Positions 8,325 through 55,745 of a stretch of 64,000 bases of DNA are shown here, one piece after another. The notes below the pieces were generated by a model. The model was not told where the DNA came from and made no database searches. It saw only the letters and a program-made list of their open reading frames with translations. A program made the translations under genes and the position numbers. Position 1 is the first letter of the stretch. Every line of letters begins with the position of its first letter. Origin of the DNA: Thermodesulfobacteriota bacterium (GTDB lineage Bacteria > Desulfobacterota_D > UBA1144 > Nemesobacterales > JAJCZQ01); contig CBDBDR010000017.1 in NCBI GenBank assembly GCA_965203965.1, forward strand, positions 278,440-342,439, read 5' to 3'.

Positions 8325-8405
8325 AGGCAGGTAAGGTTTACGGGTCAAAATCCGCACCGTATTTCAGCCTCCACTCAAATTATTTGTTTAGGGTTATAAT
8401 AAAAA

Positions 8406-8437
8406 GGACACACGAGCTAATTGTGTGTCCTTTTAGT
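8406..8437 (+). terminator. Rho-independent terminator after the TonB-dependent receptor gene
   Basis: ggacacac-N9-gtgtgtcc stem followed by ttttagtttt. Confidence 0.5.
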
Positions 8438-8567
8438 TTTTCCTGTGGGTGGGTAAAAAAGTGCGGTGGTGAGGGTGGGTCGGTAAGAATCATATCTGCA
8501 TAATTATCTGAAAACCGTAAAATCTTTATTCTTCCTTGCGAAATTGCGTTCTGATTTCTTTAACATT

Positions 8568-36100: not shown

Positions 36101-36258
36101 CATTCGATCTTTTTGGGTTCGTTCAGGGCTGTCACATCATCCGAAATCGAGGACAACAGATTTTGCAAGGTGGCGCGGTATGAGTGTTCCGTTGCATTGC
36201 CCGTATTATAAATGCTGGTGACTTCTACCAGATACCCTTGAATATTCAATGCCTGCAA
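33109..36258 (-). CDS. Single-chain Type IIG/IIL restriction-modification enzyme (MmeI family): N-terminal PD-(D/E)xK nuclease, gamma-class N6-adenine methyltransferase, target-recognition domain
   Basis: N-terminus …APDFIVSQGDIVIGHVEAKD… (D…EAK). Methyltransferase motif X GVWYTPEPVV, motif I DPATGTGTFL, motif IV GNPPYSG. 1049 aa. GC-rich relative to the genome. Confidence 0.75.
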   Translation of the reverse strand: MQALNIQGYLVEVTSIYNTGNATEHSYRATLQNLLSSISDDVTALNEPKKIECGAPDFIVSQGDIVIGHVEAKDIPVGIRGLKGSNKAQQERYRAALPNLIYTNCLDWDFYRDGELTASVRIADLTPGIQPKPDQYTTLENLLRDFVAQRPQTITSPRELAERMAGKAILIKDVLQNTLADDAEELVGQYEAFRENLIHNIEAEDFADIYAETIAYGMFAARLHDTSLDTFSRQEALELLPKSNPFLRSLFSYIAGYDLDDRIAWIIDDLARVFQACDVAKLMEGFGKLTGRNDPFLHFYETFLAAYNPDKRKARGVWYTPEPVVNFIVRAVDEVLQTEFSLPDGLADTSKVTIDWDTGKTDRKGKPVAIKKDVHRVQILDPATGTGTFLAEVIKQIAPKIQDIAPAMWSKYIEDDLIPRLHGFELLMASYAMCHMKLDMILTELGYKPTGNPPRLSVYLTNSLEEGEPANQTLPFTQWLSREAKGANTIKRDMPIMCVIGNPPYSGISQNMGDWISNLIEDYKYVDGKHFGERKHSLHDDYVKFIRLSESLIAKNGEGILGFITNHGYLDNPTFRGMRWHLMQTFDKIHVVDLHGNSKHGEISPNGIKDENVFDIQQGVSIVIAIKKKPQPQIRNSEVTFSELWGSCELKYERLQSLNRISISSEKLNPSEPYFTFNGKGVSAPPAYQNGFSIVEIFPLNTTGIQTSRDPVAVGESNAEIQERISEICDESISTETIRRKFFSQTSKKFPAGDTRDWKLDAERQRIPCGNILDYIVPYAFRPFDNRKVALHPALVSWPRMDVSKHMLHPNISLITARSNKKGVNHFYCSTYVSDVKCGEATTGSIFAPLYLYPDEQDLDQTQRVNFDPKLYKKIQKLADHPEDGKPDEMQVFDYIYGVLHCPAYRDTYAEFLKIDFPRIPWPTTPDEFWDVSAKGAELRKLHLMEPASIGATPYPFTGDGDNEVGKFRFEDGCVWINDSQYFADAPAVSWDFYIGGYQPAQKWLKYRKGRVLSFEDVKHYQSILKILSETDQIMKTITMTLNTAENDV

Positions 36259-37088
36259 AATCGCGCCCCGCTGCGTTTGTTGCCATCTGTGAACGGATGA
36301 TCCTTGACGATAAAGTACAGAAGATGCGCTGCCTTTTCTTCCAAACTTGGATAAACGTCTTTTCTAAAAGCGGATTGAAACACACCGCCGACGATACCCG
36401 TCACACTCCCGCTTTCTCGCTCCTGCCCGAAAATTTCCGTAGCTTCTTTTTTTCTCACGAATTCTTTTTTTAACACCACCAAAGCCGCTTTGAGATTTTC
36501 CGCCGTAAATGTTATCTGCTTCCTACTTGCCGCCGATTTTGGTAAACTGCCTTTATCATAAGCGTCTAGTGAAAACCAAGTACCCGCAAAAATACTGACA
36601 AGCTCCAAAATGTCCTTTGCTTTGACTTCATCGCTTGCGGGCAGCAAATCTCGTACGTTGGACACTGCTTGCATAAATTTTTTGTAGTTCTTCCCGGCGC
36701 GCTTTTTGTTGATCGAGTAGCCAAGGAGCAAGTGTTGTTTGAGTGTTTGGGTCGCCCAGATACGGAATTGCGTGGCTTGTTTAGAATTTACACGGTAGCC
36801 CGCAGAGAGTATAGCGTCTAAATTGTAATATTCTATTTGACGAGTTACTTGCCTCTTCCCTTCTTTTTGAACTGTTTCCAAAACGGAAACGGTTGATTTT
36901 CTGTTGAGTTCACCTGTCCGATAAATGTTTTTCAAATGCTTTGATATAGCAGGCCTCTGGACGTCAAATAAATCGGCGATTTGTTGTAAAGTCCCCCAGA
37001 TTGTATCCTTTTCAATATCCCCGCGAAACGCTATTTCTCCGTTTTCGGTTTGATACAAAACAATGTTCGGCTTAGTTTTCATGCTCAA
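36246..37088 (-). CDS. RhuM/Fic-DOC-family protein. The ORF ends only 8 aa after the Fic motif HPFTDGNKR, so it is probably C-terminally truncated.
   Basis: Fic motif HPFTDGNKRSG at the extreme C-terminus. The ORF overlaps the RM gene start by 13 nt. Confidence 0.55.
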   Translation of the reverse strand: MSMKTKPNIVLYQTENGEIAFRGDIEKDTIWGTLQQIADLFDVQRPAISKHLKNIYRTGELNRKSTVSVLETVQKEGKRQVTRQIEYYNLDAILSAGYRVNSKQATQFRIWATQTLKQHLLLGYSINKKRAGKNYKKFMQAVSNVRDLLPASDEVKAKDILELVSIFAGTWFSLDAYDKGSLPKSAASRKQITFTAENLKAALVVLKKEFVRKKEATEIFGQERESGSVTGIVGGVFQSAFRKDVYPSLEEKAAHLLYFIVKDHPFTDGNKRSGARFCRH

Positions 37089-41466: not shown

Positions 41467-41661
41467 ATGAAAGTCAGAGAAATAATAAAATTAATAAAAG
41501 ATGATGGGTGGTATCTAGATAAACACAAAGCAACAAGTCATAGGCAATTCAAACATCCATCTAAGCCAGGTAAAGTAACAGTAGCTGGAAATTTAGGAAA
41601 GGAATTAAAGAAAGGAACAGAACATAGTATAATTAAACAAGCAGGAATACAATTACATTAA
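41467..41661 (+). CDS. hicA: HicA-family toxin (mRNA interferase) of a type II toxin-antitoxin system
   Basis: 64 aa. …LIKDDGWYLDKHKATSHRQFKHPSKPGKVTVAG… (YcfA/HicA signature). Confidence 0.8.
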   Translation: MKVREIIKLIKDDGWYLDKHKATSHRQFKHPSKPGKVTVAGNLGKELKKGTEHSIIKQAGIQLH

Positions 41662-41670
41662 AAACGGAGG

Positions 41671-41892
41671 TTGATAACAATGAAAAACAAATATCTTATT
41701 ATAATTGAAAAAACAGGCAATGGTTATAGTGCTTATGCTCCTGATCTTCCAGGATGTATAGCTGCTGCGGACACCCTTGAAGAAACCAGACAACTTATGT
41801 CTGAAGCCATTGAATTTCATATAGAGGGACTAAAAGAAGATAACTATGCCGTACCTCAACCAATAAGTGTTGCCGGATATGTTACCTGCTAA
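41671..41892 (+). CDS. hicB: HicB-family antitoxin (UPF0150)
   Basis: 73 aa. …YLIIIEKTGNGYSAYAPDLPGCIAAADTLEE…. Confidence 0.7.
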   Translation: MITMKNKYLIIIEKTGNGYSAYAPDLPGCIAAADTLEETRQLMSEAIEFHIEGLKEDNYAVPQPISVAGYVTC

Positions 41893-43321: not shown

Positions 43322-44014
43322 GTGAGTAGAGACACTGCTGTCCGAGTGGGTGGATTGACCAAGTTTTACGGTTCCTCAAAGGTTTTGAACAATGTAGATT
43401 TGGAGTTGAAAAAGGGGGAATTTGCGACTTTTTTTGGTCCAAACGGTGCCGGTAAAACAACTTTAATAAAGATACTCTCAACTTTGGTAAGCCCCGATAA
43501 AGGAGAGGTCTATATAAACGGATGCAATTTGAAAAAAGAGCCAAGGGAAATAAGAAAAGTGGTCGGGGTTGTTTCCCACGAGCATTTTTTGTATCACAAC
43601 CTTACGGTGGCGGAAAACATGAGATTTTTTGGTGAACTTTACGGGATTTGCGATCTGTCTGAAAAAATAACCTTTAATCTTCAAAAATTAGGTATTTACT
43701 CTAAAAAGAAAGAGTTTGTGAGAAATCTTTCAAATGGAATGAAACAGAGGGTAGCAATAGCACGGTCTGTACTGCATGAACCTCTGGTTTTATTATTTGA
43801 CGAACCATTTGTGGGGTTGGATAAAGAGGGTATTTCTCTACTTATGGATATTTTTAAAGAATTCAAGCAGGATAACAAAACCGTAATTATTACAACGCAT
43901 AACGCAAGACTCGGGTTAAAAAACTGCGACACGGTTTTTATGTTAAATAAAGGCAGTGTGGAGTATACAAAACCCGCGAATGAAGTTGCAGTGGGTGATG
44001 TTGAAGGTAAATAA
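43322..44014 (+). CDS. ccmA: Heme exporter ATP-binding protein CcmA
   Basis: ABC ATPase (GPNGAGKTT, LSNGMKQRVAIAR) immediately upstream of ccmB/ccmC. Confidence 0.8.
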   Translation: MSRDTAVRVGGLTKFYGSSKVLNNVDLELKKGEFATFFGPNGAGKTTLIKILSTLVSPDKGEVYINGCNLKKEPREIRKVVGVVSHEHFLYHNLTVAENMRFFGELYGICDLSEKITFNLQKLGIYSKKKEFVRNLSNGMKQRVAIARSVLHEPLVLLFDEPFVGLDKEGISLLMDIFKEFKQDNKTVIITTHNARLGLKNCDTVFMLNKGSVEYTKPANEVAVGDVEGK

Positions 44015-44184
44015 TAGAGAAAGGTAGGGAGTAGCAAAGGATTGGCGATCAAGATTAATCCATACCAAACAAGCGACCCAGAACGTGCTTTCAAATCTGC
44101 ATTGCACTTTTAAAAATAAAAGCTAAATTAAATGTCATATATTTTACTTTAAACCCCTTTGTTTCTTTCACTTTTGTATAAAGC

Positions 44185-44856
44185 ATGAACAGTATTAAAA
44201 CCATTCTATGGAAAGATGTTATATGCGAGTTGCGAACAAGAGAGATGCTTTTCTCAATGGGAGCATTCTCGGTTGTGATAACTGTGCTTTTTAGCTTCAG
44301 TCTGACGGTAACAAGAGAAAATGCCGTTTTTATTGTTCCTTCTCTGTTATGGGTATCAACGATATTTGTTGGCACTTTAGGTTTGGGCAGAGCGTTTGCA
44401 ATGGAAAAAGAAAACAGCGCCTTTACGGGTATTCTGTTAAGTCCTGTTGACAGGAGTTTGTTGTATTTTGCAAAAGTTTTAAGCAATTTTCTGTATGTTT
44501 TTATAATACAGCTACTTCTGACCTTATTCTTTGTTCTATTTTTCAATATGGAGATCAAGGGTAGCTTTTTGAACTTGCTTATTGCATTCATTCTTGGAGG
44601 TATAGGTTTTTCATCGCTGGGAACACTTTTTTCCACAATGTCCGTAAACACTCGTCTGAGAGAAGTAATTCTCCCAATTATACTATTTCCCTTGCTTCTT
44701 CCCCTTCTAGTGAATGCTATAAATATAACCTCAGTTGTATTAGCAGGCGGTGCTTTTGGCGAAGTGATCCCTTCTATAAAAATATTGATCTGTTTTGATA
44801 TAATCTTTCTTGCTGCAAGTGCACTTGTTTATGAATACGTAGTGGAGGAAACATAG
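44185..44856 (+). CDS. ccmB: Heme exporter protein CcmB
   Basis: 223-aa polytopic membrane protein between ccmA and ccmC. Confidence 0.75.
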   Translation: MNSIKTILWKDVICELRTREMLFSMGAFSVVITVLFSFSLTVTRENAVFIVPSLLWVSTIFVGTLGLGRAFAMEKENSAFTGILLSPVDRSLLYFAKVLSNFLYVFIIQLLLTLFFVLFFNMEIKGSFLNLLIAFILGGIGFSSLGTLFSTMSVNTRLREVILPIILFPLLLPLLVNAINITSVVLAGGAFGEVIPSIKILICFDIIFLAASALVYEYVVEET

Positions 44857-44861
44857 ATCAG

Positions 44862-45527
44862 ATGGTGAGAATAACTCTGTATATATTGGCTTTGATACTT
44901 ATGCTCGCATCCACTTATGCGGCGTTTCTGTATGCTCCGACTGAATTAGTAATGGGAGATATACAGAGAATATTCTATTTTCATCTTGGCTCGGTTTGGG
45001 TGGCAACAATTGCTTTTACGATCGTGTTTATCTCAAGCATTGCCTATTTGGTAAACAGGGAACGGAAATGGGATATTATGGCTTATTCGTCTGCCGAAAT
45101 AGGTGTTTTGTTTATCACAATAACGATAGTAACGGGGAGCATCTGGGCAAAGCCTATATGGGGCACTTGGTGGACGTGGGATCCTCAACTTACCGCGACT
45201 TTTATATTGTGGATACTATACGTTGTTTACCTGCTGATACGTGCAAATTCAGATTATGATGAAAAAAGGGCTAAATACTCAGCTGTTTTTGCCATTATTG
45301 CGTTCATAGACCTTCCTCTGGTTTATATATCAGCAAGGGTAATGAAAGGTATTTCCCCGGTTGTATTTGGTCCCGGAGGGGGTGGGATTGAACCTAAAAT
45401 GATGCACACGCTCTTATTGACCTTGCTGGCTTTTACATTCTTATTTCTTGTTTTAATAGTAGAGCGGGTAAGAATAGAAAATATGAGATACAGAATTGAC
45501 TTATTGCGTAACAAGGAGGTTTCGTAA
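44862..45527 (+). CDS. ccmC: Heme exporter protein CcmC
   Basis: WWD-domain motif (WGTWWTWDPQLT) with flanking His residues. Confidence 0.85.
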   Translation: MVRITLYILALILMLASTYAAFLYAPTELVMGDIQRIFYFHLGSVWVATIAFTIVFISSIAYLVNRERKWDIMAYSSAEIGVLFITITIVTGSIWAKPIWGTWWTWDPQLTATFILWILYVVYLLIRANSDYDEKRAKYSAVFAIIAFIDLPLVYISARVMKGISPVVFGPGGGGIEPKMMHTLLLTLLAFTFLFLVLIVERVRIENMRYRIDLLRNKEVS

Positions 45528-45643
45528 TGGCATATCTTTTCTGGGGTCATGTAATAACTTGGATAATGGTAATTTTTTACGTGGTTTATTTGAAAATTAA
45601 GACAAAAAAACTTGAGCGTGAATTAGAAGATATTCAGGGATGA
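45527..45643 (+). CDS. ccmD: Heme exporter protein CcmD (38 aa, single TM). Not in the supplied ORF track; found by hand.
   Basis: ATG overlaps the ccmC stop (taATGg). Translation MAYLFWGHVITWIMVIFYVVYLKIKTKKLERELEDIQG. The size and position are typical of CcmD. Confidence 0.6.
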   Translation: MAYLFWGHVITWIMVIFYVVYLKIKTKKLERELEDIQG

Positions 45644-45655
45644 CAATATAAAGTA

Positions 45656-46075
45656 ATGTTAAAGAACCAGTTGAAATTTATTGTTGCGATCGTGATCATA
45701 GTGGGTGCTTTAAGCTACCTTGTATTTGCAGGCGTCAAGGAAACTATGGTTTATTACCTGACCGTAAGCGAGCTTGAATCAAAAACCCCTTCTATTTACG
45801 GTACAAGGGTAAGGGTTTCCGGTGTGGTAGTTCCGAACACGATTGAAAAGGGGATAGACGGCAGCATCAAGTTCCAGATAGCCGGTGGTAACCGTAGCAT
45901 CAACGTTTTTTACGACGGTATAATTCCGGACATTTTTAGAGATGAAGTTGAGGCGGTTGTGGAAGGGAAATATTTCAGCAACGGGGAGTTTCAAGCGGAC
46001 GTGCTTCTGGCAAAATGCCCGACAAAGTATGAGTCGGACGATCAGTTTTACGATCCGAGCAGGAAAAGCAACTGA
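45656..46075 (+). CDS. ccmE: Cytochrome c-type biogenesis heme chaperone CcmE, CXXXY variant
   Basis: N-terminal TM anchor and OB-fold. The heme-binding region reads …LLAKCPTKYES… (Cys in place of the canonical His of HXXXY). Confidence 0.8.
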   Translation: MLKNQLKFIVAIVIIVGALSYLVFAGVKETMVYYLTVSELESKTPSIYGTRVRVSGVVVPNTIEKGIDGSIKFQIAGGNRSINVFYDGIIPDIFRDEVEAVVEGKYFSNGEFQADVLLAKCPTKYESDDQFYDPSRKSN

Positions 46076-48051
46076 TGTGGCAAATAGGCAATGCCGCCCT
46101 TTATTTTGCTTTTTTCCTTTCTCTTTACACTGTTGTAGCATCACTTATAGGTATTCGGTTTAAGAACGGTAATATAATTGAAAGTGGCAAGAACTCCGCC
46201 TTATCAATTTTTATCCTCCTTTTTATATCCTGCGGTGCGCTTGTCTATGAACTGATAGATCTAAATTTTTCATTAAGATACGTTGTTCTGAATACAAGCA
46301 CGGATCTCCCGATAATATACAGATTTACGGCACTCTGGGCAGGTCAGGCAGGCTCGCTTTTACTCTGGGGATTTATTCTATCGGCTTATTCGGCTATAGC
46401 TGTTTTTAAGTTTGGCAAAAGAGGCTCGCTGTTTAATTCCCACTTTGCCGTGGTGGCATTTTCTATCCTCGCGTTCTTTTTATATTTGGTCACCTTTGTT
46501 GAAAATCCTTTTCAAAAAGCTCCTTTCACTCTTGATGAAGGAAGGGGACTTAATCCCATATTGCAGAACGGCTATATGGCTATTCATCCAGTTACCCTTT
46601 ATCTGGGTTACGTTGGATTAACAATTCCTTTTGCTTTTGGTATGGCAGCTCTAATGAGCGGAAAACTTGATGATACGTGGATAAGGAACTCAAGAAAGTG
46701 GACACTTTTTGCTTGGACGTTTCTCAGCATTGGTCTGGTACTTGGTGCAAGATGGGCATATCTTGAACTTGGATGGGGAGGTTACTGGGCGTGGGATCCC
46801 GTTGAGAATGCAGCTTTTATGCCGTGGTTATCCGCAACTGCTTTCCTGCACTCCGTTATGATACAGGAGAGAAGGGGAATGCTGAAGAAGTGGAACATGG
46901 TATTGCTTATAATTACGTTTTTTTTGACCTTGTTTGGAACTTTTATTACACGGAGCGGTATAATCTCGTCAGTTCATTCCTTTGCACAGTCTGATATAGG
47001 TCTCCCGTTTCTTTGCTTTATAGCATTTGTGCTTATTTTTTCATTTGCAGCTTTTACCTACAGACTGAAAGACCTTGATAGTGAAGAGAGTTTTGACTCT
47101 ATTCTTTCAAGAGAAAGTGCCTTTATATTCAACAACCTTCTGTTTCTCGGTGCTGCTTTTACGGTGTTTATTGGAACTCTGTTCCCAATTATTTCTGAGG
47201 CATTGGCAGGGGAGAAGATCCTTGTGGGGCCACCATACTTCAACAAGGTCAACGTGCCAATAGGACTTGTTCTCATATTCTTAATGGGAATTGGTCCGCT
47301 TATCCCTTGGAGGAAAGCATCATCGGATAGCTTGAAGAAAAACTTCTTGTTGCCGATCATAGCAGGAGTGTCAACGGGTGTGATCTTGTTTGTTTTAAAT
47401 ATTAGGGACGTGGTTGCGTTGGCTACGTTCAGTATTTGTGGTTTTGTTGTTTGCACCGTTGTGGTTGAGTTTTATAAAGGAGTTTCGGTAAGAATGAGCA
47501 GAAAAGAGAACGTGTTTACCGCATTTACAAAGCTGATCTCTAAAAATAAAAGAAGGTATGGAGGATATATAGTGCATATTGGTATTGTCTTGATAGTGAT
47601 AGGCATAACCTCATCATCAACCTTCAACGAGGAAAGGAAAGTAATTTTAAGCATAGATGAGAAGACTGAAGTCGGAAAGTATGAGTTGCAGTTCAAAGGT
47701 ATTGAGACTTATAATAACGATGCAAAAAATGGCACAAGGGCAAATCTGGAACTAAGCCATGGAGGTAACAGGATTGGAATGCTTTACCCTGAAAAAAATA
47801 TCTACAAATATGAAGGTAACAGGGAAATAAATCAGGAAACTGAAGTTGCACTGCGGTCAACGCTCACCGATGACCTTTATGTAATACTGTCTGATGTCAA
47901 CAACGATGGCAGCGTAACTATACGTGTTTTTATAAACCCGATGGTAAGTTGGATATGGGCTGGTGGAATGGTCGTGTTACTTGGTGCGATCACGACAATG
48001 CTTCCCGGCTTAAAAAGGAAAAGGGGAAATGTCTTGAAGCAGGGTGCTTGA
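46075..48051 (+). CDS. ccmF: Cytochrome c-type biogenesis protein CcmF (heme lyase subunit)
   Basis: 658-aa polytopic protein with a WWD-like region (…GWGGYWAWDPVENAAFMPW…). ATG overlaps the ccmE stop. Confidence 0.85.
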   Translation: MWQIGNAALYFAFFLSLYTVVASLIGIRFKNGNIIESGKNSALSIFILLFISCGALVYELIDLNFSLRYVVLNTSTDLPIIYRFTALWAGQAGSLLLWGFILSAYSAIAVFKFGKRGSLFNSHFAVVAFSILAFFLYLVTFVENPFQKAPFTLDEGRGLNPILQNGYMAIHPVTLYLGYVGLTIPFAFGMAALMSGKLDDTWIRNSRKWTLFAWTFLSIGLVLGARWAYLELGWGGYWAWDPVENAAFMPWLSATAFLHSVMIQERRGMLKKWNMVLLIITFFLTLFGTFITRSGIISSVHSFAQSDIGLPFLCFIAFVLIFSFAAFTYRLKDLDSEESFDSILSRESAFIFNNLLFLGAAFTVFIGTLFPIISEALAGEKILVGPPYFNKVNVPIGLVLIFLMGIGPLIPWRKASSDSLKKNFLLPIIAGVSTGVILFVLNIRDVVALATFSICGFVVCTVVVEFYKGVSVRMSRKENVFTAFTKLISKNKRRYGGYIVHIGIVLIVIGITSSSTFNEERKVILSIDEKTEVGKYELQFKGIETYNNDAKNGTRANLELSHGGNRIGMLYPEKNIYKYEGNREINQETEVALRSTLTDDLYVILSDVNNDGSVTIRVFINPMVSWIWAGGMVVLLGAITTMLPGLKRKRGNVLKQGA

Positions 48052-48080: not shown

Positions 48081-48374
48081 ATGTATACGATCGTAATATC
48101 GCTGATGTCCATTGTGATTTCACTTTACGTTATCCTACCTCTTGTAAGGGGTGGTATTTCACGCAGAGAAGATATATCGGTGGATGGTAAAGATAGTAAA
48201 AGGCTTTCCGAGTTGTTGAATAAAAAGGAAGTTATCATGAATGAGATCGCAGACGTTGATTTTGATCATGGACTGGGCAAGTTGAACCACGGAGACTACA
48301 AAGAAATAAAAAGTAGATATATGCAAAAGGCAGCAGAGATATTAAAGCAGATTGAAAAGATCAAAAAAGTGTAA
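48081..48374 (+). CDS. Small membrane protein (97 aa) downstream of ccmF; function unknown
   Basis: N-terminal TM helix (MYTIVISLMSIVISLYVILPLV) followed by a charged helical tail. No CXXC motif, so it is not CcmH/CcmG. Confidence 0.35.
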   Translation: MYTIVISLMSIVISLYVILPLVRGGISRREDISVDGKDSKRLSELLNKKEVIMNEIADVDFDHGLGKLNHGDYKEIKSRYMQKAAEILKQIEKIKKV

Positions 48375-48418: not shown

Positions 48419-49678
48419 ATGACAAAAAAAATATTCATAAACGGTATTCTGCTCTTACTTGCTTCATTTTTGCCTGTAAATGCCTATGCAGATGAATTGA
48501 GCGGCAAAAAGTTATTTGAGGAGAGACGTTGTTCAAGGTGTCACACTATAGGCAAGGGAATATTCGTTGGTCCAGACCTATATGGTGTAAGCGATAGATA
48601 CAGTGAACAGGAGATCATGGACTGGATCACTGGGCCGGAGACAATTTACCAAAAATTTGGTAGATCACCTGTAAACAAAGGTTACCCACCTATGCCCAAT
48701 TTGAATGTCTCGGTGGATGAGGCATCTAAAATAACCGAGTTTTTAATTGGCAATCAAATCGAGAAAGACAATAAAACGAGTGGAACGATAAAGGGCAAAG
48801 TCATCAATAAAACAGTGGGTGGGGGAGTTGAGGGTGTTGATGTGTATCTCAGGTTGTTCATGGGCGATAGGAAAATGGACGAAAAGCTGTCTATTTCCGA
48901 CAAAACAGGCGGGTTCATATTTGAAAACCTACCTTGGAACAGAAGCTACGGCATAGTAATAAGATCGGATGGCATTGAATACGAGACTGCAAGAATGGTT
49001 TTTCCATCGGACAAGACAGTGATTGACCTTGATCTACCGATCTTTAATGCAGGAAATGATGATTCAAATATAGTAATAAATGTCAATCATTACGTTATGG
49101 ATATTGAAGATGAACATATTGCCGTTGCCGAGATATATGAGTTTGAGAATGCAGGCGATACCATTTTCACGGGATTGAAGCAGGATCAACGAGACGACTT
49201 CAAAGGGACAATTAAGTTAAACGTGCCGAAAGAGGCAGAAGATCTGGCATTCAGGGAAGGTATCAGCCAAGAAAATTCCGTAAGAAAGGGTGAAGTGGTC
49301 TATGATACTGCCAGTTTTTCTCCAGGGAACAAAAGGTTAGTGTTTACCTATAAGCTGCCTTTGAAACTTGGAAGGAATCAGATGAAAAAAACCTTTTACT
49401 ATGATACAAGGTCTGCAGTTGTATTGGTGTCTGGATCAGAGAAAGTGCAAATAAGTGGTATGGAAGAGATGAAACCTATTTCATTCGGTGATCAGACCTA
49501 CCGTAGATGGTTTATCAGGGATATAAAACCAAGAGAAAACAACATAACAATAAGTTACTTCAACACCCACCTGCAATTTAAGAGAGTAGAGCTTTATCCA
49601 GTGATAATATTTGCACTCATAATTCTGTTGTTCTATCTATTCAGCCTGAGAGGTAAGAGGAAAAAGACGGACATATAA
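48419..49678 (+). CDS. Membrane-anchored mono-heme c-type cytochrome with a large beta-rich middle domain
   Basis: Signal peptide, one CxxCH (CSRCHTIG), C-terminal TM helix (LYPVIIFALIILLFYLF), 419 aa. Located next to the ccm operon. Confidence 0.7.
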   Translation: MTKKIFINGILLLLASFLPVNAYADELSGKKLFEERRCSRCHTIGKGIFVGPDLYGVSDRYSEQEIMDWITGPETIYQKFGRSPVNKGYPPMPNLNVSVDEASKITEFLIGNQIEKDNKTSGTIKGKVINKTVGGGVEGVDVYLRLFMGDRKMDEKLSISDKTGGFIFENLPWNRSYGIVIRSDGIEYETARMVFPSDKTVIDLDLPIFNAGNDDSNIVINVNHYVMDIEDEHIAVAEIYEFENAGDTIFTGLKQDQRDDFKGTIKLNVPKEAEDLAFREGISQENSVRKGEVVYDTASFSPGNKRLVFTYKLPLKLGRNQMKKTFYYDTRSAVVLVSGSEKVQISGMEEMKPISFGDQTYRRWFIRDIKPRENNITISYFNTHLQFKRVELYPVIIFALIILLFYLFSLRGKRKKTDI

Positions 49679-51026: not shown

Positions 51027-52574
51027 TTAAGAGGCATAATATTTCAGCATTTCGGATACAAGTCCTTCAATAGTGTGCTTTGATGCTGTGATCTCGGGTT
51101 TAAATCCATTGGAGATCAGCGTGTCGGAAGTTATTGGGCCTATGGAAGCACAGTTTGTGTTGTGCAGATATTTAGAGTTTTTGTCTAGGATCTTTAGCAT
51201 GTTGATCACAGTTGATGAACTTGTGAAAGCAATAAGGTCAATTCCACCTGATCTCAATTTGTCTATGAACTCTTTTTTTAATGAAGGTTTTATTTTTGGT
51301 ATTACAGTTTCATAGCAACTTGCGATAGTAACTTTACCTTTCATCTCTTTCAAAGTTTTGGGCAATGTGTCTCTTGCAACTTTTGCTCTTGGTATTAAAA
51401 ATCGCCGTCCCTTTATTTCACTTGGTTTAAGGCTCTCAATTATGCCTTCTGCAGTGTAGTTGTGGGGGATAATATCGGCTGATAATCCGTAGCTTTTTAG
51501 TTCAGAACCAGTTTTTTCTCCAATTACCACTATTTTCTTTTCGGAAAATATCCTTGAATCCAGACCTTTACTGAATATCCTTGAAAAAAAGTATTTAACA
51601 CCGTTGACGCTGGTAAATATCACGTAGTCAAACTTGCTTATAGATTTTATGGTCTTGTCAACTTGTTCCCATGAACTTGTCGGAATTGTCTCTATCGTTG
51701 GAAACTCAATTACATTGGCACCATAGGAACTTAGCAGGTCATAGAATGCCGAAGACTGATCTTCAGCTCTTGTAATAACTATGTTCTTTCCAAAGAGAGG
51801 CTTCTTTTCATACCAACTCACTTGCTTTTTCAGATTTACTATTTTTCCCACTAATATAATTGCTGGAGATTTTATAGCAGGGTCCGAGCGTATAAGTCCC
51901 GCTATACTGTCAATCGTGCCTTTAACTGATCTTTGCGTTGGTATTGTCCCCTGTGAGATCACCATCGCAGGTGTGTTTTTGGGTATTTTTTCCTCTATTA
52001 GCTTTTTCATAATGAGGTGGATGTTTTTCAGGGACATTAAAAAGATCAGGGTTTCTTGTTCTGATATTGCTTTCCAGTTCAGCTTGGGATCTGATTTAAA
52101 TGGATTTTCATGCCCTGTGATCACAGTAAAAGAGGAGTTGTATTCTCTATGAGTAAGTGGCACACCTGAATAAGCTGGAACAGAACTGACGGAACTGACG
52201 CCGGGAACTATCTCTATCACTATATTGGCTTTAACCAGTGCTTCTGCTTCTTCTCCCCCGCGACCGAATATGAAGGGGTCTCCTCCCTTTAACCTCACTA
52301 CGGTTTTCTTTCTTCTGGCATGGTATATGAGTTTTTTATTTATCTCATTCTGAGTGCTTTCTTTCTGACCGGGGGTTTTTCCCACGTAGATCAGTTTTGC
52401 CGACTTTTTACAGAAATTTAACAGTCTTTTGTTTATAAGCGCATCGTATATGACAACGTCAGCGTATCGTAGTATTTTCTTGCCCTTTAAGGTCAGCAGT
52501 TCAGGATCACCGGGTCCGGCGCCCACGAGATAAACGACTGGCTCCATTATGTTTGAAAAAGAAACCGCAGGCAC
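51027..52574 (-). CDS. Uroporphyrinogen-III C-methyltransferase / uroporphyrinogen-III synthase fusion (CobA-HemD)
   Basis: N-terminal SUMT motifs (VGAGPGDPELLTLKG, VVRLKGGDPFIFGRGGEE) and a C-terminal HEM4-like half. 515 aa. Confidence 0.85.
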   Translation of the reverse strand: MPAVSFSNIMEPVVYLVGAGPGDPELLTLKGKKILRYADVVIYDALINKRLLNFCKKSAKLIYVGKTPGQKESTQNEINKKLIYHARRKKTVVRLKGGDPFIFGRGGEEAEALVKANIVIEIVPGVSSVSSVPAYSGVPLTHREYNSSFTVITGHENPFKSDPKLNWKAISEQETLIFLMSLKNIHLIMKKLIEEKIPKNTPAMVISQGTIPTQRSVKGTIDSIAGLIRSDPAIKSPAIILVGKIVNLKKQVSWYEKKPLFGKNIVITRAEDQSSAFYDLLSSYGANVIEFPTIETIPTSSWEQVDKTIKSISKFDYVIFTSVNGVKYFFSRIFSKGLDSRIFSEKKIVVIGEKTGSELKSYGLSADIIPHNYTAEGIIESLKPSEIKGRRFLIPRAKVARDTLPKTLKEMKGKVTIASCYETVIPKIKPSLKKEFIDKLRSGGIDLIAFTSSSTVINMLKILDKNSKYLHNTNCASIGPITSDTLISNGFKPEITASKHTIEGLVSEMLKYYAS

Positions 52575-52722
52575 GCCCCGTTGTCAAGTATGGTAAATTG
52601 CCGAGATGATCTATGACGTTTCAGGTTCTAACAAAATATGGGTTCAGAAAAAATAATACAGTAATAAAGTTTCTACAAATTTTCTCTTGACACACGGTTA
52701 TTTGTGCTTAAATTCTGGAATA

Positions 52723-53310
52723 ATGCAAAAGAAACTCGGTGATATTGCTACTGTTCAAATGGGATTTCCCTTTCGTTCACGTATTGAACCAGACGAGGAT
52801 GGAAATGTCTCTATTATTCAAATGAGCAATTTAGGAGAAAATAGTTTGAAGGCTCATACGGATCTGCTCAAGGTTTACCTAAAGAATATATCTCATAAGC
52901 ACTTAGTGAAACAAAAAGATTTGATCTTTCGTTCAAGGGGAAAAACAATAAATGCAGTGATAATTGATAAAGAAATTGAGCGAGCAGTCGTAGCGGCACC
53001 GTTAATTAGAATAAGAGTTACGGAAAAGGACGTTATTCCGGAATATCTTCTCTGGTTCATGAATCAGCCATTATCTCAAGCATTTTTGCACGGCAGAGCC
53101 ACCGGAACTTCAATGCCTATGATCGGTAAGTCAACTCTTGAAGATCTGCGGATTACTATCCCTGATCTTGAAACTCAAAGGCAAATCGTAATACTTGCTC
53201 ATTTATCGGACAAAGAGCAAAAACTAATGAAACGGTTGGCTAAGGCAAATGGTAGTTTAGTTCAAAAAACTTTGAAACAGTTGGTAACAGATCCTAAGAA
53301 GTCTTATTAG
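52723..53310 (+). CDS. hsdS: Type I RM specificity subunit, half-size (single target-recognition domain plus conserved region)
   Basis: ~195 aa with one target-recognition domain and the conserved helical region …LETQRQIVILAHLSDKEQKLMKRL… It is immediately upstream of hsdM. Confidence 0.7.
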   Translation: MQKKLGDIATVQMGFPFRSRIEPDEDGNVSIIQMSNLGENSLKAHTDLLKVYLKNISHKHLVKQKDLIFRSRGKTINAVIIDKEIERAVVAAPLIRIRVTEKDVIPEYLLWFMNQPLSQAFLHGRATGTSMPMIGKSTLEDLRITIPDLETQRQIVILAHLSDKEQKLMKRLAKANGSLVQKTLKQLVTDPKKSY

Positions 53311-53322
53311 AGGAGCAGAGAA

Positions 53323-54837
53323 ATGACAAATGGGACAATAGATCAAAAAAACATAGACAATGCTGCATGGTCTGCCTGCAACACTTTTCGTGGAGTGATG
53401 GACGCGTCCGTTTACAAGGACTACATACTCGTGATGTTGTTTCTCAAATATGTTTCGGATGTTTGGAAGAGCCATTATGAGAAATACAAAAAGCAATACG
53501 GAGACCACAAAGAGCGCATCAACCGCCTTCTTAAAAATGAGCGGTTTGTTTTGCCTAAAGACAGCAGTTTTTACAACCTGTATGAGAATCGTTCTGCTTC
53601 AAATATCGGTGAACTTATAAACATTGCGTTGACCGCATTTGAAGACGAAAACAAAGAGAAACTGGAGGGTGTTTTCCGCAACATTGACTTCAATAGCGAA
53701 ACAAATTTCGGCAAAACAAAAGACCGCAATCGCCGTCTTAAAACACTACTTGAAGATTTGAACAAACCAGAGTTGGATATGAGTCCAGATAATGTTACAG
53801 AAGACATTATCGGCAATACATACATCTATCTGATAGAGCGTTTTGCGTCCGATGCTGGCAAAAAAGCGGGAGAGTTCTACACACCTCACAAGGTTTCGGA
53901 GTTGGTAGCAAAGTTATGCGACCCCAAGCCCGGAGCACGCATTTGCGACCCTACTTGTGGTTCTGGAGGGCTTCTAATTGAAGCCGCGCGCGAAGTGGGT
54001 GGCGATGATTACTCTCTTTGTGGGATGGAAGTCAACGGAGGTACTTGGGCGCTTTGTCGGATGAATATGTTCCTTCACGGGATGGATTCAGCACGAATTG
54101 AATGGTGCAATACATTAACAGCCCCCGGACTCGTGGAAACCGACCGCCTGATGAGGTTTGACAATATTGTCGCAAATCCACCTTTCTCGTTGGATAAGTG
54201 GGGAGCGGAAGAAGCGGGAAACGACATTTACAAGCGTTTTTGGCGAGGAATTCCTCCCAAGTCTAAGGGGGATTACGCTTTCATCAGTCACATGGTGGAG
54301 GCAGCTCTGGAAAAGAAAGGGCGCATTGCGGTTGTTGTCCCACATGGTGTTTTATTCAGGGGCGCGGCAGAGGGGCGTATCCGTCGCCATTTAATAGAAG
54401 AAAATCTGCTGGATGCCGTCATCGGCTTACCGGGTAATCTTTTTCCAACCACGTCCATTCCGGTTGCTATCTTGGTGTTTGACCGTTCACGCGAGACAGG
54501 TGGTGCAAATGAGAAACTCAAGGATGTGTTGTTCATTGATGCAAGCCGTGAGTATGAGTCCGGAAAAAATCAGAACAAGCTACTGGACAAGCATATAGAA
54601 AAGATCGTTGACACATATAAAAAGCGTAAAAGTGTTGACAAATATGCGCATTTGGCAAAACCAGAAGAGATTGAAGAAAACGATTTCAACCTGAACATCC
54701 CGCGTTATGTGGACACCTTTGAGGAAGAAGAGGAGATAGATATAGACGCGGTGCAGCGAGAAATAGATCAACTGGAAAAAGAACTGTCCAAAGTGCGGAT
54801 GGAGATGGCGAAAAAAATGAAGGAGATTAAAAGATGA
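53323..54837 (+). CDS. hsdM: Type I RM N6-adenine DNA methyltransferase subunit
   Basis: N-terminal HsdM domain, motif I (DPTCGSGGLL), motif IV (NPPF). Confidence 0.9.
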   Translation: MTNGTIDQKNIDNAAWSACNTFRGVMDASVYKDYILVMLFLKYVSDVWKSHYEKYKKQYGDHKERINRLLKNERFVLPKDSSFYNLYENRSASNIGELINIALTAFEDENKEKLEGVFRNIDFNSETNFGKTKDRNRRLKTLLEDLNKPELDMSPDNVTEDIIGNTYIYLIERFASDAGKKAGEFYTPHKVSELVAKLCDPKPGARICDPTCGSGGLLIEAAREVGGDDYSLCGMEVNGGTWALCRMNMFLHGMDSARIEWCNTLTAPGLVETDRLMRFDNIVANPPFSLDKWGAEEAGNDIYKRFWRGIPPKSKGDYAFISHMVEAALEKKGRIAVVVPHGVLFRGAAEGRIRRHLIEENLLDAVIGLPGNLFPTTSIPVAILVFDRSRETGGANEKLKDVLFIDASREYESGKNQNKLLDKHIEKIVDTYKKRKSVDKYAHLAKPEEIEENDFNLNIPRYVDTFEEEEEIDIDAVQREIDQLEKELSKVRMEMAKKMKEIKR

Positions 54838-55055
54838 GCAAGATGCCAACAAATAAACATCATCAAACATTTGAGGATGCTTGTCGCCGTACGGAAAACG
54901 GCGCCGAATTTTGGTCTGCACGCGAACTTTTGTCCATTCTCGATTATGGAAGTTGGGATAAATTCAAGGCAGTCATTCATAAGTCTATAAGTGCTTGTGA
55001 GAATTCGGGCATGGTTTCCTCAGACCATTTTTCCCAGATGGGAAAAATGGTCTGA
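54834..55055 (+). pseudogene. DinD-like (DNA-damage-inducible protein D family) N-terminal fragment, 73 aa
   Basis: …HHQTFEDACRRTENGAEFWSARELLSILDYGSWDKFKAVIHKSISACENSG… resembles DinD N-termini. ATGA overlap with the hsdM stop; truncated. Confidence 0.4.
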
Positions 55056-55175
55056 AGGGTTCGGGTCGGAGGTAATGGCTAAACAGGAGAGAAAGGAACA
55101 GGCATTGTTGAAAAGGATAAAAAGGGCATAAAATAGGTATTTTTTGCCTATATCTACAACGACATATACACAAAA

Positions 55176-55745
55176 TTGAATTTTATGTACACATTAAGCA
55201 AACATATACATAATTTTGAGAGCATTCACCCGTTCCCTGACGGCAATGGTCGCATTGGTCGCGTGCTGAACGTGCTGTATCTGACGCACAAGGGGCTTTT
55301 AGACGCTCCCATCCTTTATTTGAGCCGAGCGATCAACCGCACAAAGCCAGACTACTACCGCTTATTGCAAGCCGTGCGTGAAGAGGGCGCATGGGAAGAA
55401 TGGATCATCTACATACTGAGTGCCGTTACAGAAACGGCAAAATCAACCTTGCAACTTGTATCGGGTATTCGGGAACTGATGGCTGAACACAAAAAACTTA
55501 TACGAGATGAACTGCCGAAAATCTACTCTCAGGACTTGTTGAATAATCTGTTTCGCAACCCCTATACGCGTATTGACTACGTGGCGAAAGACCTAACGGT
55601 TGACCGCAGAACAGCACGCAAGTATCTCAAACAATTAACTGAAAAGGGGATTGTGGAGGAAGTAAAGGCGGGGAGGAACAACTACTACATAAACAAAAAA
55701 CTGGTTGACCTGTTTGTCAGTGTCTCGGTGGAAGGGGATCAGTGA
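55176..55745 (+). pseudogene. Fic-family protein lacking the N-terminal half (begins just before the HPFPDGNGRIGR motif)
   Basis: Canonical Fic motif HPFPDGNGRIGR at residues 18-29, followed by a C-terminal wHTH-like region. A functional Fic fold needs ~100 aa upstream of the motif. Confidence 0.55.

Follow-up and report, generated by a model that had tools for sequence, protein, structure and literature searches.

Results

The ccm gene cluster

The window (the whole stretch of 64,000 nucleotides that was analysed) contains a cytochrome c maturation (Ccm) gene cluster, and the coordinates of its genes and motifs are collected in Table 1. All eight ORFs of the cluster are intact. The genes ccmC, ccmD, ccmE, and ccmF are consecutive, each stop codon overlapping or adjoining the start codon of the next gene; for instance, the stop codon of ccmC is overlapped by the ATG of ccmD. 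In addition, the identical gene order recurs on independent contigs. The start of ccmB lies later in the gene calls of sister contigs, which gives a protein of 199 aa there.

Table 1. Genes and motifs of the ccm cluster (positions are those of the window)
Feature	Position	Strand	Description	Support
ccmA	43322..44014	+	ATPase subunit of the haem-release ABC complex	Pfam ABC_tran 3.4e-34; heads the conserved cluster
ccmB	44185..44856	+	Membrane subunit	Pfam PF03379 CcmB 5.7e-23; synteny retained in loci L001-L003
ccmC	44862..45527	+	WWD-family haem-handling protein	Pfam PF01578 8.6e-35
CcmC P-His1	44982..44984		His41 in FYFHLG	
CcmC WWD motif	45159..45185		WGTWWTWDP, residues 100-108	
CcmC GISPVVFG	45348..45371		Loop with Ser165	
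CcmC Ser165	45354..45356		Site of P-His2	
ccmD	45527..45643	+	Single-helix membrane protein, 38 aa	TIGR04391 CcmD_alt_fam 7.5e-07
ccmE	45656..46075	+	Cys-type haem chaperone, 139 aa	Pfam PF03100 1.1e-25
CcmE LLAKCPTKYES	46004..46036		Haem-attachment region	
CPTKY haem-binding motif	46016..46030	+	Cys121 at 46016-46018, Tyr125 at 46028-46030	
ccmF	46075..48051	+	Haem lyase, single 658-aa CcmF	Pfam CcmF_C 3.3e-72, Cytochrom_C_asm 7.3e-38
CcmF WWD motif	46774..46809		WGGYWAWDPVEN	
p97	48081..48374	+	Accessory membrane protein, 97 aa	97-aa gene also called on L001-L003
Cytochrome c gene	48419..49678	+	Membrane-anchored, monohaem, 419 aa	
Cytochrome c haem motif	48530..48544		CSRCH	
Cytochrome c Met-ligand region	48683..48697		YPPMP	

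The first-pass annotation of this DNA had described a compact ccmABCDEF cluster. All of these genes were identified using Pfam and NCBIfam, but the cluster extends further, because ccmF is followed by a probable CcmI-N-terminal-like gene (p97) and a cytochrome c gene, which are conserved together with ccmF. The NCBIfam match of ccmD reached 29 bits, above the cut-off of 24 (TIGR04391). The scores of CcmB, CcmC, CcmE, and CcmF lay under the NCBIfam equivalog cut-offs (for ccmC, 120.6 bits against 186 for TIGR01191), and ccmA scored 129.8 bits, also under its cut-off of 131.6 (TIGR01189).

CcmE carries Cys instead of His at the haem-binding position

The ccmE ORF runs from an ATG start to a TGA stop, and its sequence includes ADVLLAKCPTKYESDDQFY. 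The ORF encodes a CcmE haem chaperone with Cys in place of the usual His. The match to PF03100 scored 90.2 bits (cut-off 24.6) and joined residues 31-127 to profile positions 1-98 of 99. In the AF2 model (pLDDT 84.6), a transmembrane helix (residues 2-30) is followed by an OB-fold (33-119) and a flexible tail from residue 120. Cys121 and Tyr125 come directly after the strand 111-119, and pLDDT falls to 55 over residues 121-130. Furthermore, a Foldseek search against the PDB placed 8ce8_E, 1sr3, 1lm0, and 1j6q on top, with 2kct at rank 16.

The first-pass annotation had read CXXXY instead of HXXXY in the haem-attachment region and had called for an alignment with references of both types. This alignment bore out the reading. 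Using phmmer against solved CcmE structures, LLAKCPTKY was placed over VLAKHDENY of Escherichia coli (8ce8_E and 1sr3_A; His130...Tyr134) and over LMTKCP of Desulfovibrio vulgaris (2kct_A), so that Cys121, whose codon is TGC, lies in the column of E. coli His130 and of the D. vulgaris Cys (2KCT). MAFFT with the CcmE of Cupriavidus and Pseudomonas gave the same column. A His conserved at the ligand site, the refuting outcome named in the first-pass annotation, is impossible here, since the protein lacks histidine altogether and Cys121 is its only cysteine. In addition, LAKCPTKY was present in 120 of the 120 homologues among those listed (59-100% identity), and in an alignment of 25 sequences residues L117-S127 were invariant, against a mean column identity of 75%. 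Thus, the Cys is not there by chance.

CcmC has Ser at the P-His2 site

CcmC of the window retains the WWD motif and P-His1 (E. coli H60), which corresponds to His41 and aligns to YLHV; this column holds His in 148 of the 150 nearest CcmC representatives. However, the site of P-His2 (E. coli H184) is occupied by Ser165. Both in the alignment with E. coli CcmC (7f02_C) and in MAFFT, VMKGISPVV aligns to WWNTLHQG and WWRTIHP. Ser was found at this site in all 18 complete CcmCs from loci with the ccmABCDEF Cys-type gene order, and GISPVVFG is invariant among CcmCs of only 54-73% overall identity. P-His2 is kept as His in 127 of the 150 nearest representatives and also in a haloarchaeal CcmC.

In the literature, P-His2 counts as a feature shared by every WWD-family protein, and we found no literature description of a CcmC with Ser at this site. 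In E. coli, the CcmC mutant H184A formed neither holo-CcmE nor cytochrome c (PMC9616876). Thus, the haem-holding step of the window's CcmC would not be identical to that of the model system, and the haem in the CcmC-CcmE complex would be ligated differently from that in E. coli.

No conserved replacement His was found in CcmC, CcmD, or the CcmE tail. His182 (in KMMH, 17 residues past Ser165), the only His of CcmC besides His41, was considered as a relocated P-His2, but this position is H, V, N, I, or D across the clade. His8 of CcmD is Ser in L004. Tyr132 in the CcmE tail, considered as a compensating ligand, does not vary among the 25 closest homologues but is missing in L005, L017, L018, and L021. 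The loss of P-His2 is also no general correlate of a Cys-type CcmE, since all 11 complete CcmCs of the tabulated ccmE-first Cys-type loci keep the His; outside this sample, L090, which has the ccmE-first order, has Ser. Nor is the loss strictly tied to the absence of CcmH: L083 and L087 are without CcmH and yet keep the His, and there is only a tendency.

CcmF and the two genes behind it

Besides its WWD motif, CcmF keeps the four conserved His, two periplasmic and two transmembrane (MAIHPV, SSVHSF, AFLHSV, and YIVHIG). The alignment with Thermus CcmF (6zmq_A, 7.9e-110) covers the motif and these His.

The p97 protein has an N-terminal transmembrane helix ending in PLVR, followed by the cytoplasmic motif ADVDFDHGLGKLNHGDYKEIK. 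The ORF at the same position in L004 shares 33% identity with p97. The direct homology search with p97 returned only a near-identical copy, and the window's p97 itself had no direct family match in Pfam or NCBIfam (including TIGR03142). The p97 family was therefore assembled via synteny and local profiles, and its members come after ccmF or ccmH in at least 25 Cys-type loci. Three relatives matched TIGR03142 (cytochro_ccmI) with 28.7, 21.9, and 16.4 bits, all below the cut-off of 29.3 (best E value 1.3e-6). In hhalign, the p97 family matched the CcmI N-terminal profile with a probability of 64% (E 6.8e-5). The second transmembrane helix and the periplasmic TPR domain of full-length CcmI were not found in p97, whose 97 aa include a single N-terminal hydrophobic helix. 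These profile matches suggest that p97 is probably a CcmI-N-terminal-like module. Some p97 relatives carry a C-terminal zinc ribbon.

In the 419-aa protein encoded next, beta-sandwich domains and, at the C-terminus, a transmembrane helix come after the cytochrome c domain. It may be either a substrate of the Ccm system or a conserved accessory protein.

Absence of CcmH, CcmG, and CcdA from the window

Homologues of CcmH, CcmG, and CcdA were not found in the 64-kb window using a motif scan, Pfam on about 48 ORFs, and purpose-built profiles. The same window contains no WCxxC motif and no ORF of the thioredoxin-fold or DsbD/CcdA type. Within this span, the earlier statement that the cluster is without ccmG and ccmH therefore holds. 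In addition, no CcmH-like or Trx-like ORF was found in any of the 18 loci of the ccmABCDEF Cys-type order (flanks of up to 10 kb covered). The first-pass annotation had also considered that a CXXXY CcmE fits the missing ccmH. This stands only in part: no ccmH is present in the window, but CcmH confirmed by Pfam occurs in many Cys-type loci, and according to a 2011 review, about one third of the Cys-type bacteria have CcmH (PMC3601427).

Spread of Cys-type CcmE and its two architectures

CXXXY had been described in the first-pass annotation as known from a minority of lineages. Such CcmEs are indeed documented in archaea and Desulfovibrio-type bacteria (PMC9084895, PMC3601427, PMC3884852), and the 2011 review also lists Chloroflexi and Firmicutes (PMC3601427). 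However, the type is not rare, since a single metagenome scan gave at least 561 stretches with a Cys-type CcmE. It is also found on Bacillaceae plasmids. The motif had further been taken as a taxonomic clue. The closest named relatives of the window are Candidatus Dadabacteria / Thermodesulfobacteriota (homologues at 60-75% identity), and therefore the hint was right. Among the sampled Cys-type CcmEs, CPTKY occurred 24 times and CPSKY 63 times; in the 2011 review, CPSKY is given for 25 of 36 (PMC3601427).

By gene order and conserved residues, the Cys-type Ccm loci split into at least two architectures. In one, the order is ccmE-F-H-...-A-B-C-D, CcmH is present, and P-His2 of CcmC is kept. In the other, to which the window belongs, the order is ccmABCDEF, the loci contain no CcmH, and P-His2 of CcmC is absent.

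Discussion

The CcmE described here is a further member of the already known System I*, the Ccm variant with a Cys-type CcmE reported since 2006 (Allen 2006; Goddard 2010; Gupta 2022; PMC3601427). We propose, with a probability of about 0.88, that it serves cytochrome c maturation by System I* in a Dadabacteria-like bacterium of the Thermodesulfobacteriota. System I* was originally defined as being without CcmH, although the 2011 review reports that this is not universal (PMC3601427).

The nearest described system is that of Desulfovibrio, which belongs to the same phylum in the NCBI taxonomy. Both CcmEs have Cys for His in K-C-P-x-K-Y at the end of the OB-fold, with Tyr four residues past the Cys. 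Both systems have CcmD and, with p97 as the probable counterpart in the window, a CcmI-type helper, and both clusters are without CcmH. In E. coli carrying the Desulfovibrio operon, holocytochrome c was reportedly made without CcmH or CcmG, and the Desulfovibrio CcmI is described as boosting maturation while being dispensable (both PMC3601427). However, the window CcmE is only about 29% identical to 2KCT, and its motif is CPTKY instead of the majority form CPSKY. The CcmABCEF system of Methanosarcina acetivorans is likewise without CcmH and depends on the Cys of a CXXXY CcmE to attach haem (PMC9084895). Nevertheless, archaea are without CcmD and CcmI and the CcmF of Methanosarcina is split over two genes (PMC9084895), whereas the window has CcmD, a probable CcmI-like gene, and a single CcmF.

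Compared with the canonical System I of E. coli, Pseudomonas, and Cupriavidus, the window shares the CcmA-F families and folds, the ccmABCDEF order, the WWD motifs, P-His1 of CcmC, and the four His of CcmF. It differs in that Cys121 replaces His130 and HXXXY is absent from CcmE, CcmC has Ser for P-His2/H184, the probable CcmI is a 97-aa N-terminal-like module without TPR repeats, and ccmF is followed by p97 and the cytochrome c gene, not by ccmG/ccmH as in L008 and L009. Most other Cys-type loci differ from the window in having the ccmE-F-...-A-B-C-D order. Those with CcmH (for example, on Cytobacillus firmus plasmid p1, Metabacillus plasmid pB218, and many metagenome contigs) resemble the window in the K-C-P-[ST]-K-Y motif of CcmE and in p97-like and related periplasmic beta-sandwich proteins after the lyase genes. 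Unlike the window, they encode a CcmH, confirmed by Pfam, that carries Cys-rich motifs (for example, MCxCGC...C), often have a TlpA/Trx gene, follow the order ccmE-F-H-...-A-B-C-D, and have a CcmC that keeps P-His2 as W-W-R-x-x-H-P. Furthermore, their periplasmic protein is without a haem motif, whereas that of the window is fused to a cytochrome c domain.

From these comparisons, the following pathway can be proposed. Haem would be held on the periplasmic side by the WWD loop and His41 of CcmC, as the conservation of both motifs suggests. The membrane-anchored CcmE would then dock on CcmC, and the thiol of Cys121 in its tail would capture the haem in place of His130. The position of this Cys is seen directly in the alignments, and a haem vinyl would most likely be bound through a thioether, with Tyr125 serving as an axial ligand, by analogy with Desulfovibrio desulfuricans and Methanosarcina. 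By homology, CcmAB and CcmD would release holo-CcmE using ATP. CcmF, with its WWD motif and four His, would take over the haem and attach it to the CXXCH of the apocytochrome without a CcmH partner (whose absence applies to the window), and the adjoining CcmI-N-terminal-like protein would probably help it. The 419-aa cytochrome c from the gene downstream of p97 would be a likely client of this pathway.

Several other explanations should be considered. If the alignment were an artefact, the true ligand would be a His elsewhere and the Cys would lie outside the motif. We found nothing in support of this; the amino-acid composition of CcmE refutes it, and three independent alignments (phmmer with four PDB chains, MAFFT, and the Pfam profile from end to end) give one column, so this explanation can practically be set aside. 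The cluster could also be a decaying, non-functional remnant, with the Cys of CcmE and the Ser of CcmC as degenerative changes. E. coli CcmE H130C binds haem but cannot hand it on (PMC9084895), E. coli CcmC H184A is dead (PMC9616876), and four Ccm proteins score below their equivalog cut-offs, all of which would fit a remnant. However, no ORF of the cluster is broken, CcmC and CcmF retain their WWD motifs and lack just one of their six canonical His, and the cytochrome c gene is positioned for co-transcription with the cluster. Furthermore, the CcmE motif (LLAKCPTKYES, 120 of 120 listed homologues) and the CcmC loop do not vary, the latter among CcmCs of just 54-73% overall identity, and such invariance is a mark of purifying selection. 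Decay is thus highly improbable.

Two further explanations concern the partners and the chemistry of the proposed pathway, and they carry more weight. Genes for CcmH, a CcmG/ResA-like thioredoxin, and CcdA/DsbD might lie in other parts of the genome, and their products might act together with the cluster. The genome spans at least about 1.5 Mb (the longest contig has 1,507,946 bases), of which the window shows 64 kb, Pfam-confirmed CcmH is common in Cys-type loci, in line with the third given in the 2011 review, and Trx/TlpA and DsbD_TM genes adjoin ccm in L090, L007, and L093. On the other hand, the 18 loci of the same order, with flanks of up to 10 kb, showed no CcmH-like or Trx-like ORF, and CcmH, where present, directly follows ccmF, in the slot held here by p97. 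We therefore consider distant partners possible but doubtful. The other explanation is that Cys121 acts only as a reversible thiolate axial ligand, with the haem bound non-covalently and no thioether intermediate. Even for Desulfovibrio, reports disagree on whether the Cys-haem link is covalent: the D. vulgaris CcmE (2KCT) reportedly binds ferric haem non-covalently via the conserved Cys (PMC3884852), unlike the D. desulfuricans CcmE, for which covalent binding is reported (PMC3601427). A thioether would be hard to break, according to the 2011 review (PMC3601427), and the sixth site freed by the missing P-His2 would suit a CcmE residue as ligand. However, the Methanosarcina CcmE gave a haem-stained band on denaturing gels that depended on C120, the residue required for haem attachment (PMC9084895), and the usual axial ligand Tyr125 is also invariant in the CcmEs related to that of the window. 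A purely thiolate-bound haem is thus rather unlikely.

Within the System I* reading, the Dadabacteria-type ccmABCDEF clusters may form a distinct sub-variant, in which CcmC would work with a single axial His. We give this proposal, which is drawn from the protein alignments, about even odds. More speculatively, a CcmE residue (Cys121 or Tyr125) could fill the sixth coordination site in the CcmC-CcmE complex.

Taken as a System I* member, this uncultured lineage with a small genome joins the users of the Cys-based pathway and extends its known range, which is large, as the metagenome scan suggests. Loci of the window type lack two parts regarded as 'essential', CcmH and P-His2 of CcmC. If the cluster is active, either a Cys-type CcmE can be loaded without P-His2 ligation, or CcmE itself provides the sixth ligand through the thiolate of Cys121 or through Tyr125. 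If the sub-variant is real, it would be a natural experiment on the handover of haem from CcmC to CcmE. How haem is ligated and transferred among CcmC, CcmE, and CcmF, and what role CcmH plays, are questions of the field that natural systems without these two parts could address.

Cys-Type CcmE and Its Ligand Position

The first-pass annotation had placed a Cys at the heme-ligand position of CcmE, and alignment with HXXXY and CXXXY reference proteins confirmed this. In phmmer alignments with solved CcmE chains, E. coli VLAKHDENY (8ce8_E, 1sr3_A) paired with LLAKCPTKY, so that Cys121 corresponded to His130 and Tyr125 to Tyr134, and in Desulfovibrio vulgaris CcmE (2kct_A) KCP lay opposite the KCP of our protein. 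MAFFT, run with CcmE from Cupriavidus and Pseudomonas, put Cys121 in the same column. In addition, the protein (C-terminal sequence ...EFQADVLLAKCPTKYESDDQFYDPSRKSN) contains one Cys, Cys121, and no His. Therefore, a conserved His at the ligand position is excluded by composition alone.

The protein matched Pfam PF03100 over profile positions 1-98 of 99 (1.1e-25, 90.2 bits; gathering score 24.6), and several NCBIfam CcmE models also matched, with scores under their equivalog cut-offs. An AlphaFold2 model built from 25 homologues (pLDDT 84.6) predicted a membrane helix (residues 2-30) and an OB-type barrel (33-119), followed from the Cys onward by a tail of low confidence. Its best solved-structure matches were CcmE structures (8ce8_E, 1sr3, 1lm0, and 1j6q); 2kct ranked 16th. 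Furthermore, LAKCPTKY was present in all 120 listed CcmE homologues (identity 59-100%), and residues 117-127 were invariant in a 25-sequence alignment with a mean column identity of 75%. By family, fold, ligand position, and conservation, this is a CcmE whose Cys motif is real, rightly placed, and under selection.

Features of the ccm locus
Feature	Position	Strand	Description
ccmA	43322-44014	+	Pfam ABC_tran; NCBIfam ccmA
ccmB	44185-44856	+	Pfam CcmB
ccmC	44862-45527	+	Pfam Cytochrom_C_asm
GISPVVFG	45348-45371	+	CcmC residues 163-170; Ser165 at 45354-45356
ccmD	45527-45643	+	TIGR04391, score over cut-off
ccmE	45656-46075	+	ATG to TGA, 139 aa; Pfam CcmE
CPTKY motif	46016-46030	+	In CcmE; begins with Cys121 (TGC, 46016-46018)
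ccmF	46075-48051	+	Pfam CcmF_C
p97	48081-48374	+	97 aa, single helix; first gene after ccmF
419-aa cytochrome c protein	48419-49678	+	Second gene after ccmF; membrane-anchored, monoheme

The ccm Cluster and Its Surroundings

The ccmE gene sits in a co-directional cluster, ccmA-B-C-D-E-F, which is complete as first annotated, all six genes being identified by Pfam or NCBIfam profiles. CcmF matched Thermus CcmF (6zmq_A) at 7.9e-110, and its WWD motif and four conserved His are all retained. The same eight genes were found on identical or near-identical contigs. The cluster had also been described as lacking obvious ccmG and ccmH, and both are absent within the 64-kb window: no ORF of at least 50 aa carried LRCxxC or WCxxC, no CcmH, thioredoxin-fold, or DsbD/CcdA protein turned up when about 48 ORFs were scanned with Pfam, and profiles from canonical and divergent CcmH and CcmG/TlpA proteins gave no match.

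The GC content of the window is 0.40. The motif had been taken as a taxonomic clue to the organism, and the nearest named CcmE relatives are annotated as Candidatus Dadabacteria or Thermodesulfobacteriota, the former being a class within the latter phylum in the NCBI taxonomy.

Several differences in layout were seen among related loci. In the window, ccmD is plain, with 38 aa; in several Dadabacteria-type loci, namely L004 (a Dadabacteria MAG locus), L011, L016, L019, and L020, the CcmD helix forms the C-terminus of a longer ORF (about 220 aa) whose N-terminus is lipoprotein-like, and L004 (8419-9959) has an additional 240-aa membrane protein between ccmC and this ORF. The ccmA-ccmB gap is 170 bp in the window (44015-44184), and in the sister contig L001, whose CcmE is identical, this region is about 500 bases longer (7917-8448) and holds two small gene calls (99 and 70 aa).

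A fused TP_methylase (uroporphyrinogen-III methyltransferase) and HEM4 (uroporphyrinogen-III synthase) gene lies at 51027-52574 (-), and L001, L002 (another sister contig), and L004 share its synteny with the ccm cluster. Desulfovibrio, with its sirohaem-dependent heme route, is known to have such a CobA/HemD fusion; the window showed no ahb genes. In addition, defense and mobile-type genes flank the cluster (33109-37088, 41467-41892, and 52687-57895): a Type ISP restriction-modification enzyme, a RhuM/Fic protein, a HicA/HicB pair, and Type I RM specificity and methylase genes with Fic fragments.

Two Architectures of Cys-Type Loci

A Cys-type motif scan of metagenomes gave at least 561 confirmed stretches, from which 80 loci were kept, and all loci were annotated with phmmer and local profiles. 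We found two architectures among them.

Gene organization in the two groups of Cys-type loci
Character	Group 1	Group 2
Members	Window, L001-L005, L010-L023, L025, L052	L007, L024, L045, L049, L055, L062, L066, L077 and others
Gene order	ccmA-B-C-D-E-F-p97-cytochrome c	ccmE-F-(CcmH)-(p97-like)-(periplasmic protein)-A-B-C-D
CcmE motif	KCPTKY	Mostly KCPSKY
CcmH-like gene	None	Usually present

In the CcmH-like proteins of group 2, Cys-rich motifs (MCxCGC...C) replace LRCxxC, and the three examples checked, including L024 and L062, passed the Pfam CcmH (PF03918) threshold at 55-68 bits. CcmH absence characterizes group 1 and does not define Cys-type systems, in agreement with the 2011 review (PMC3601427).

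The CcmH-family ORF after ccmF has four to six Cys, in motifs like MCxCGCxxxxxxCxCG, in L024, L034, L036, L045, L047, L049, L055, L058, L062, L066, L073, L077, L080, and L088. Two Bacillaceae megaplasmids, Cytobacillus firmus p1 (L007, NZ_CP107028.1) and Metabacillus pB218 (L093), carry a complete Cys-type cluster in the order ccmE (KCPSKY)-F-H-hyp-hyp-A-B-C-(D)-TlpA, in which a C-x8-C motif of CcmH replaces LRCxxC. A cytochrome c oxidase assembly gene adjoins ccm on both, and quinol/cytochrome oxidase genes adjoin it on L007. On a Natronorubrum bangense plasmid (L092, 3655-4110), the CcmE of a haloarchaeon lacks both HXXXY and CXXXY (tail LTVRAHEGEHPDDHP); its neighbors are ccdA, ccmAB, and hemE/H/G. 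The abstract of Allen et al. 2006 reportedly mentions a "third form", which this protein matches.

Accessory Genes after ccmF

The 97-aa protein p97 shares 33% identity with the same-position ORF of a Dadabacteria MAG. Its family has an N-terminal helix ending P-L-[LFV]-R, the motif ...D[IL][ED]FD[HYF]xxGK[LI]sxxDY..., and in some members a C-terminal zinc ribbon. In many Cys-type loci, of both groups, a member of this family follows ccmF or ccmH. Three members matched TIGR03142, the NCBIfam CcmI N-terminal domain (best 1.3e-6, 28.7 bits; cut-off 29.3), p97 of the window itself having no direct match, and a profile-profile comparison with two CcmI N-termini gave 64% probability. These borderline scores suggest that p97 may be a CcmI-N-terminal-like module, which would agree with the CcmI helper reported in Desulfovibrio System I*.

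In the 419-aa protein, a class-I cytochrome c domain (CSRCH...YPPMP; Pfam 2.5e-07) is fused to beta-sandwich domains, and the protein also has a signal/anchor helix and, at the C-terminus, a membrane helix. Its gene lies immediately downstream of the ccm genes and is conserved there. Elsewhere, both in further Cys-type loci and on Bacillaceae plasmids, the beta-sandwich part occupies this position without heme; some versions end in a p97-like motif.

CcmC without the Second Periplasmic His

CcmC has two periplasmic axial heme ligands, P-His1 and P-His2 (E. coli H60 and H184). Compared with E. coli CcmC (7f02_C), the CcmC of the window keeps P-His1 (His41) and the WWD motif, and H184 (WWNTLHQG) is replaced by Ser165 (VMKGISPVV). 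This column was confirmed by MAFFT with Pseudomonas, Cupriavidus, Cytobacillus, Metabacillus, Natronorubrum, and metagenomic CcmCs, and the context is recognizable ([TG]-[IL]-H-P versus G-I-S-P). GISPVVFG was invariant in 18 of 18 complete group-1 CcmCs (identity 54-100%), and all 11 group-2 CcmCs kept P-His2. The CcmC of L092 also retains P-His2.

Among the best 150 cluster representatives of 6448 CcmC relatives, the P-His1 column was His in 148; the P-His2 column was His in 127 and Ser in 5, and most others look truncated. One Ser representative (L090) comes from a ccmE-F-p97-...-A-B-C locus, also without CcmH. No conserved replacement His was found; H182, the sole other His of the window protein, was rejected, as it is not conserved in the clade.

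With CcmC H184A, E. coli makes no holo-CcmE, and cytochrome c is at 0% (PMC9616876); a 2023 review ascribes the two periplasmic His to all three members of the WWD family (PMC10663686). The 2011 review lists no known CcmC variants (PMC3601427). Our limited literature search found no description of a CcmC without P-His2, which is absence of evidence and leaves novelty unproven.

Relation to System I* and Proposed Mechanism

As the first-pass annotation had stated, the His-to-Cys replacement in CcmE (CXXXY) has been described for archaea and some bacteria (PMC3601427, PMC9084895); it was named System I*. Cys-type CcmE occurs in Delta-proteobacteria, Chloroflexi, and Firmicutes, mostly with CPSKY, and CcmH is present in about one-third of Cys-type bacteria (PMC3601427). 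According to that review, neither CcmH nor CcmG was needed for the Desulfovibrio operon to mature cytochrome c in E. coli, the CcmE of this operon bound heme covalently, and CcmI boosted maturation and was not required. Another review reports an OB fold for D. vulgaris CcmE (2KCT) and ferric heme bound non-covalently via Cys (PMC3884852). In Methanosarcina, C120 of CXXXY is needed for heme attachment, and CcmABCEF suffices (PMC9084895). This literature therefore supports the earlier interpretation, with qualifications, and the CcmE adds another member to an already known kind.

From the protein families and the Desulfovibrio and Methanosarcina work, a route can be proposed. CcmC would present heme via the WWD loop and His41, and Cys121 of CcmE would capture it, a thioether being the probable link and Tyr125 a likely axial ligand. 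Holo-CcmE would be released by CcmAB and CcmD, and CcmF would pass the heme to CXXCH without CcmH, probably helped by the CcmI-like protein. More speculatively, a CcmE residue might take the coordination site vacated by P-His2. We give roughly even odds (about 0.5) that the single-His CcmC is a functional, previously undescribed sub-variant, and it is this part of the locus that is worth pursuing.
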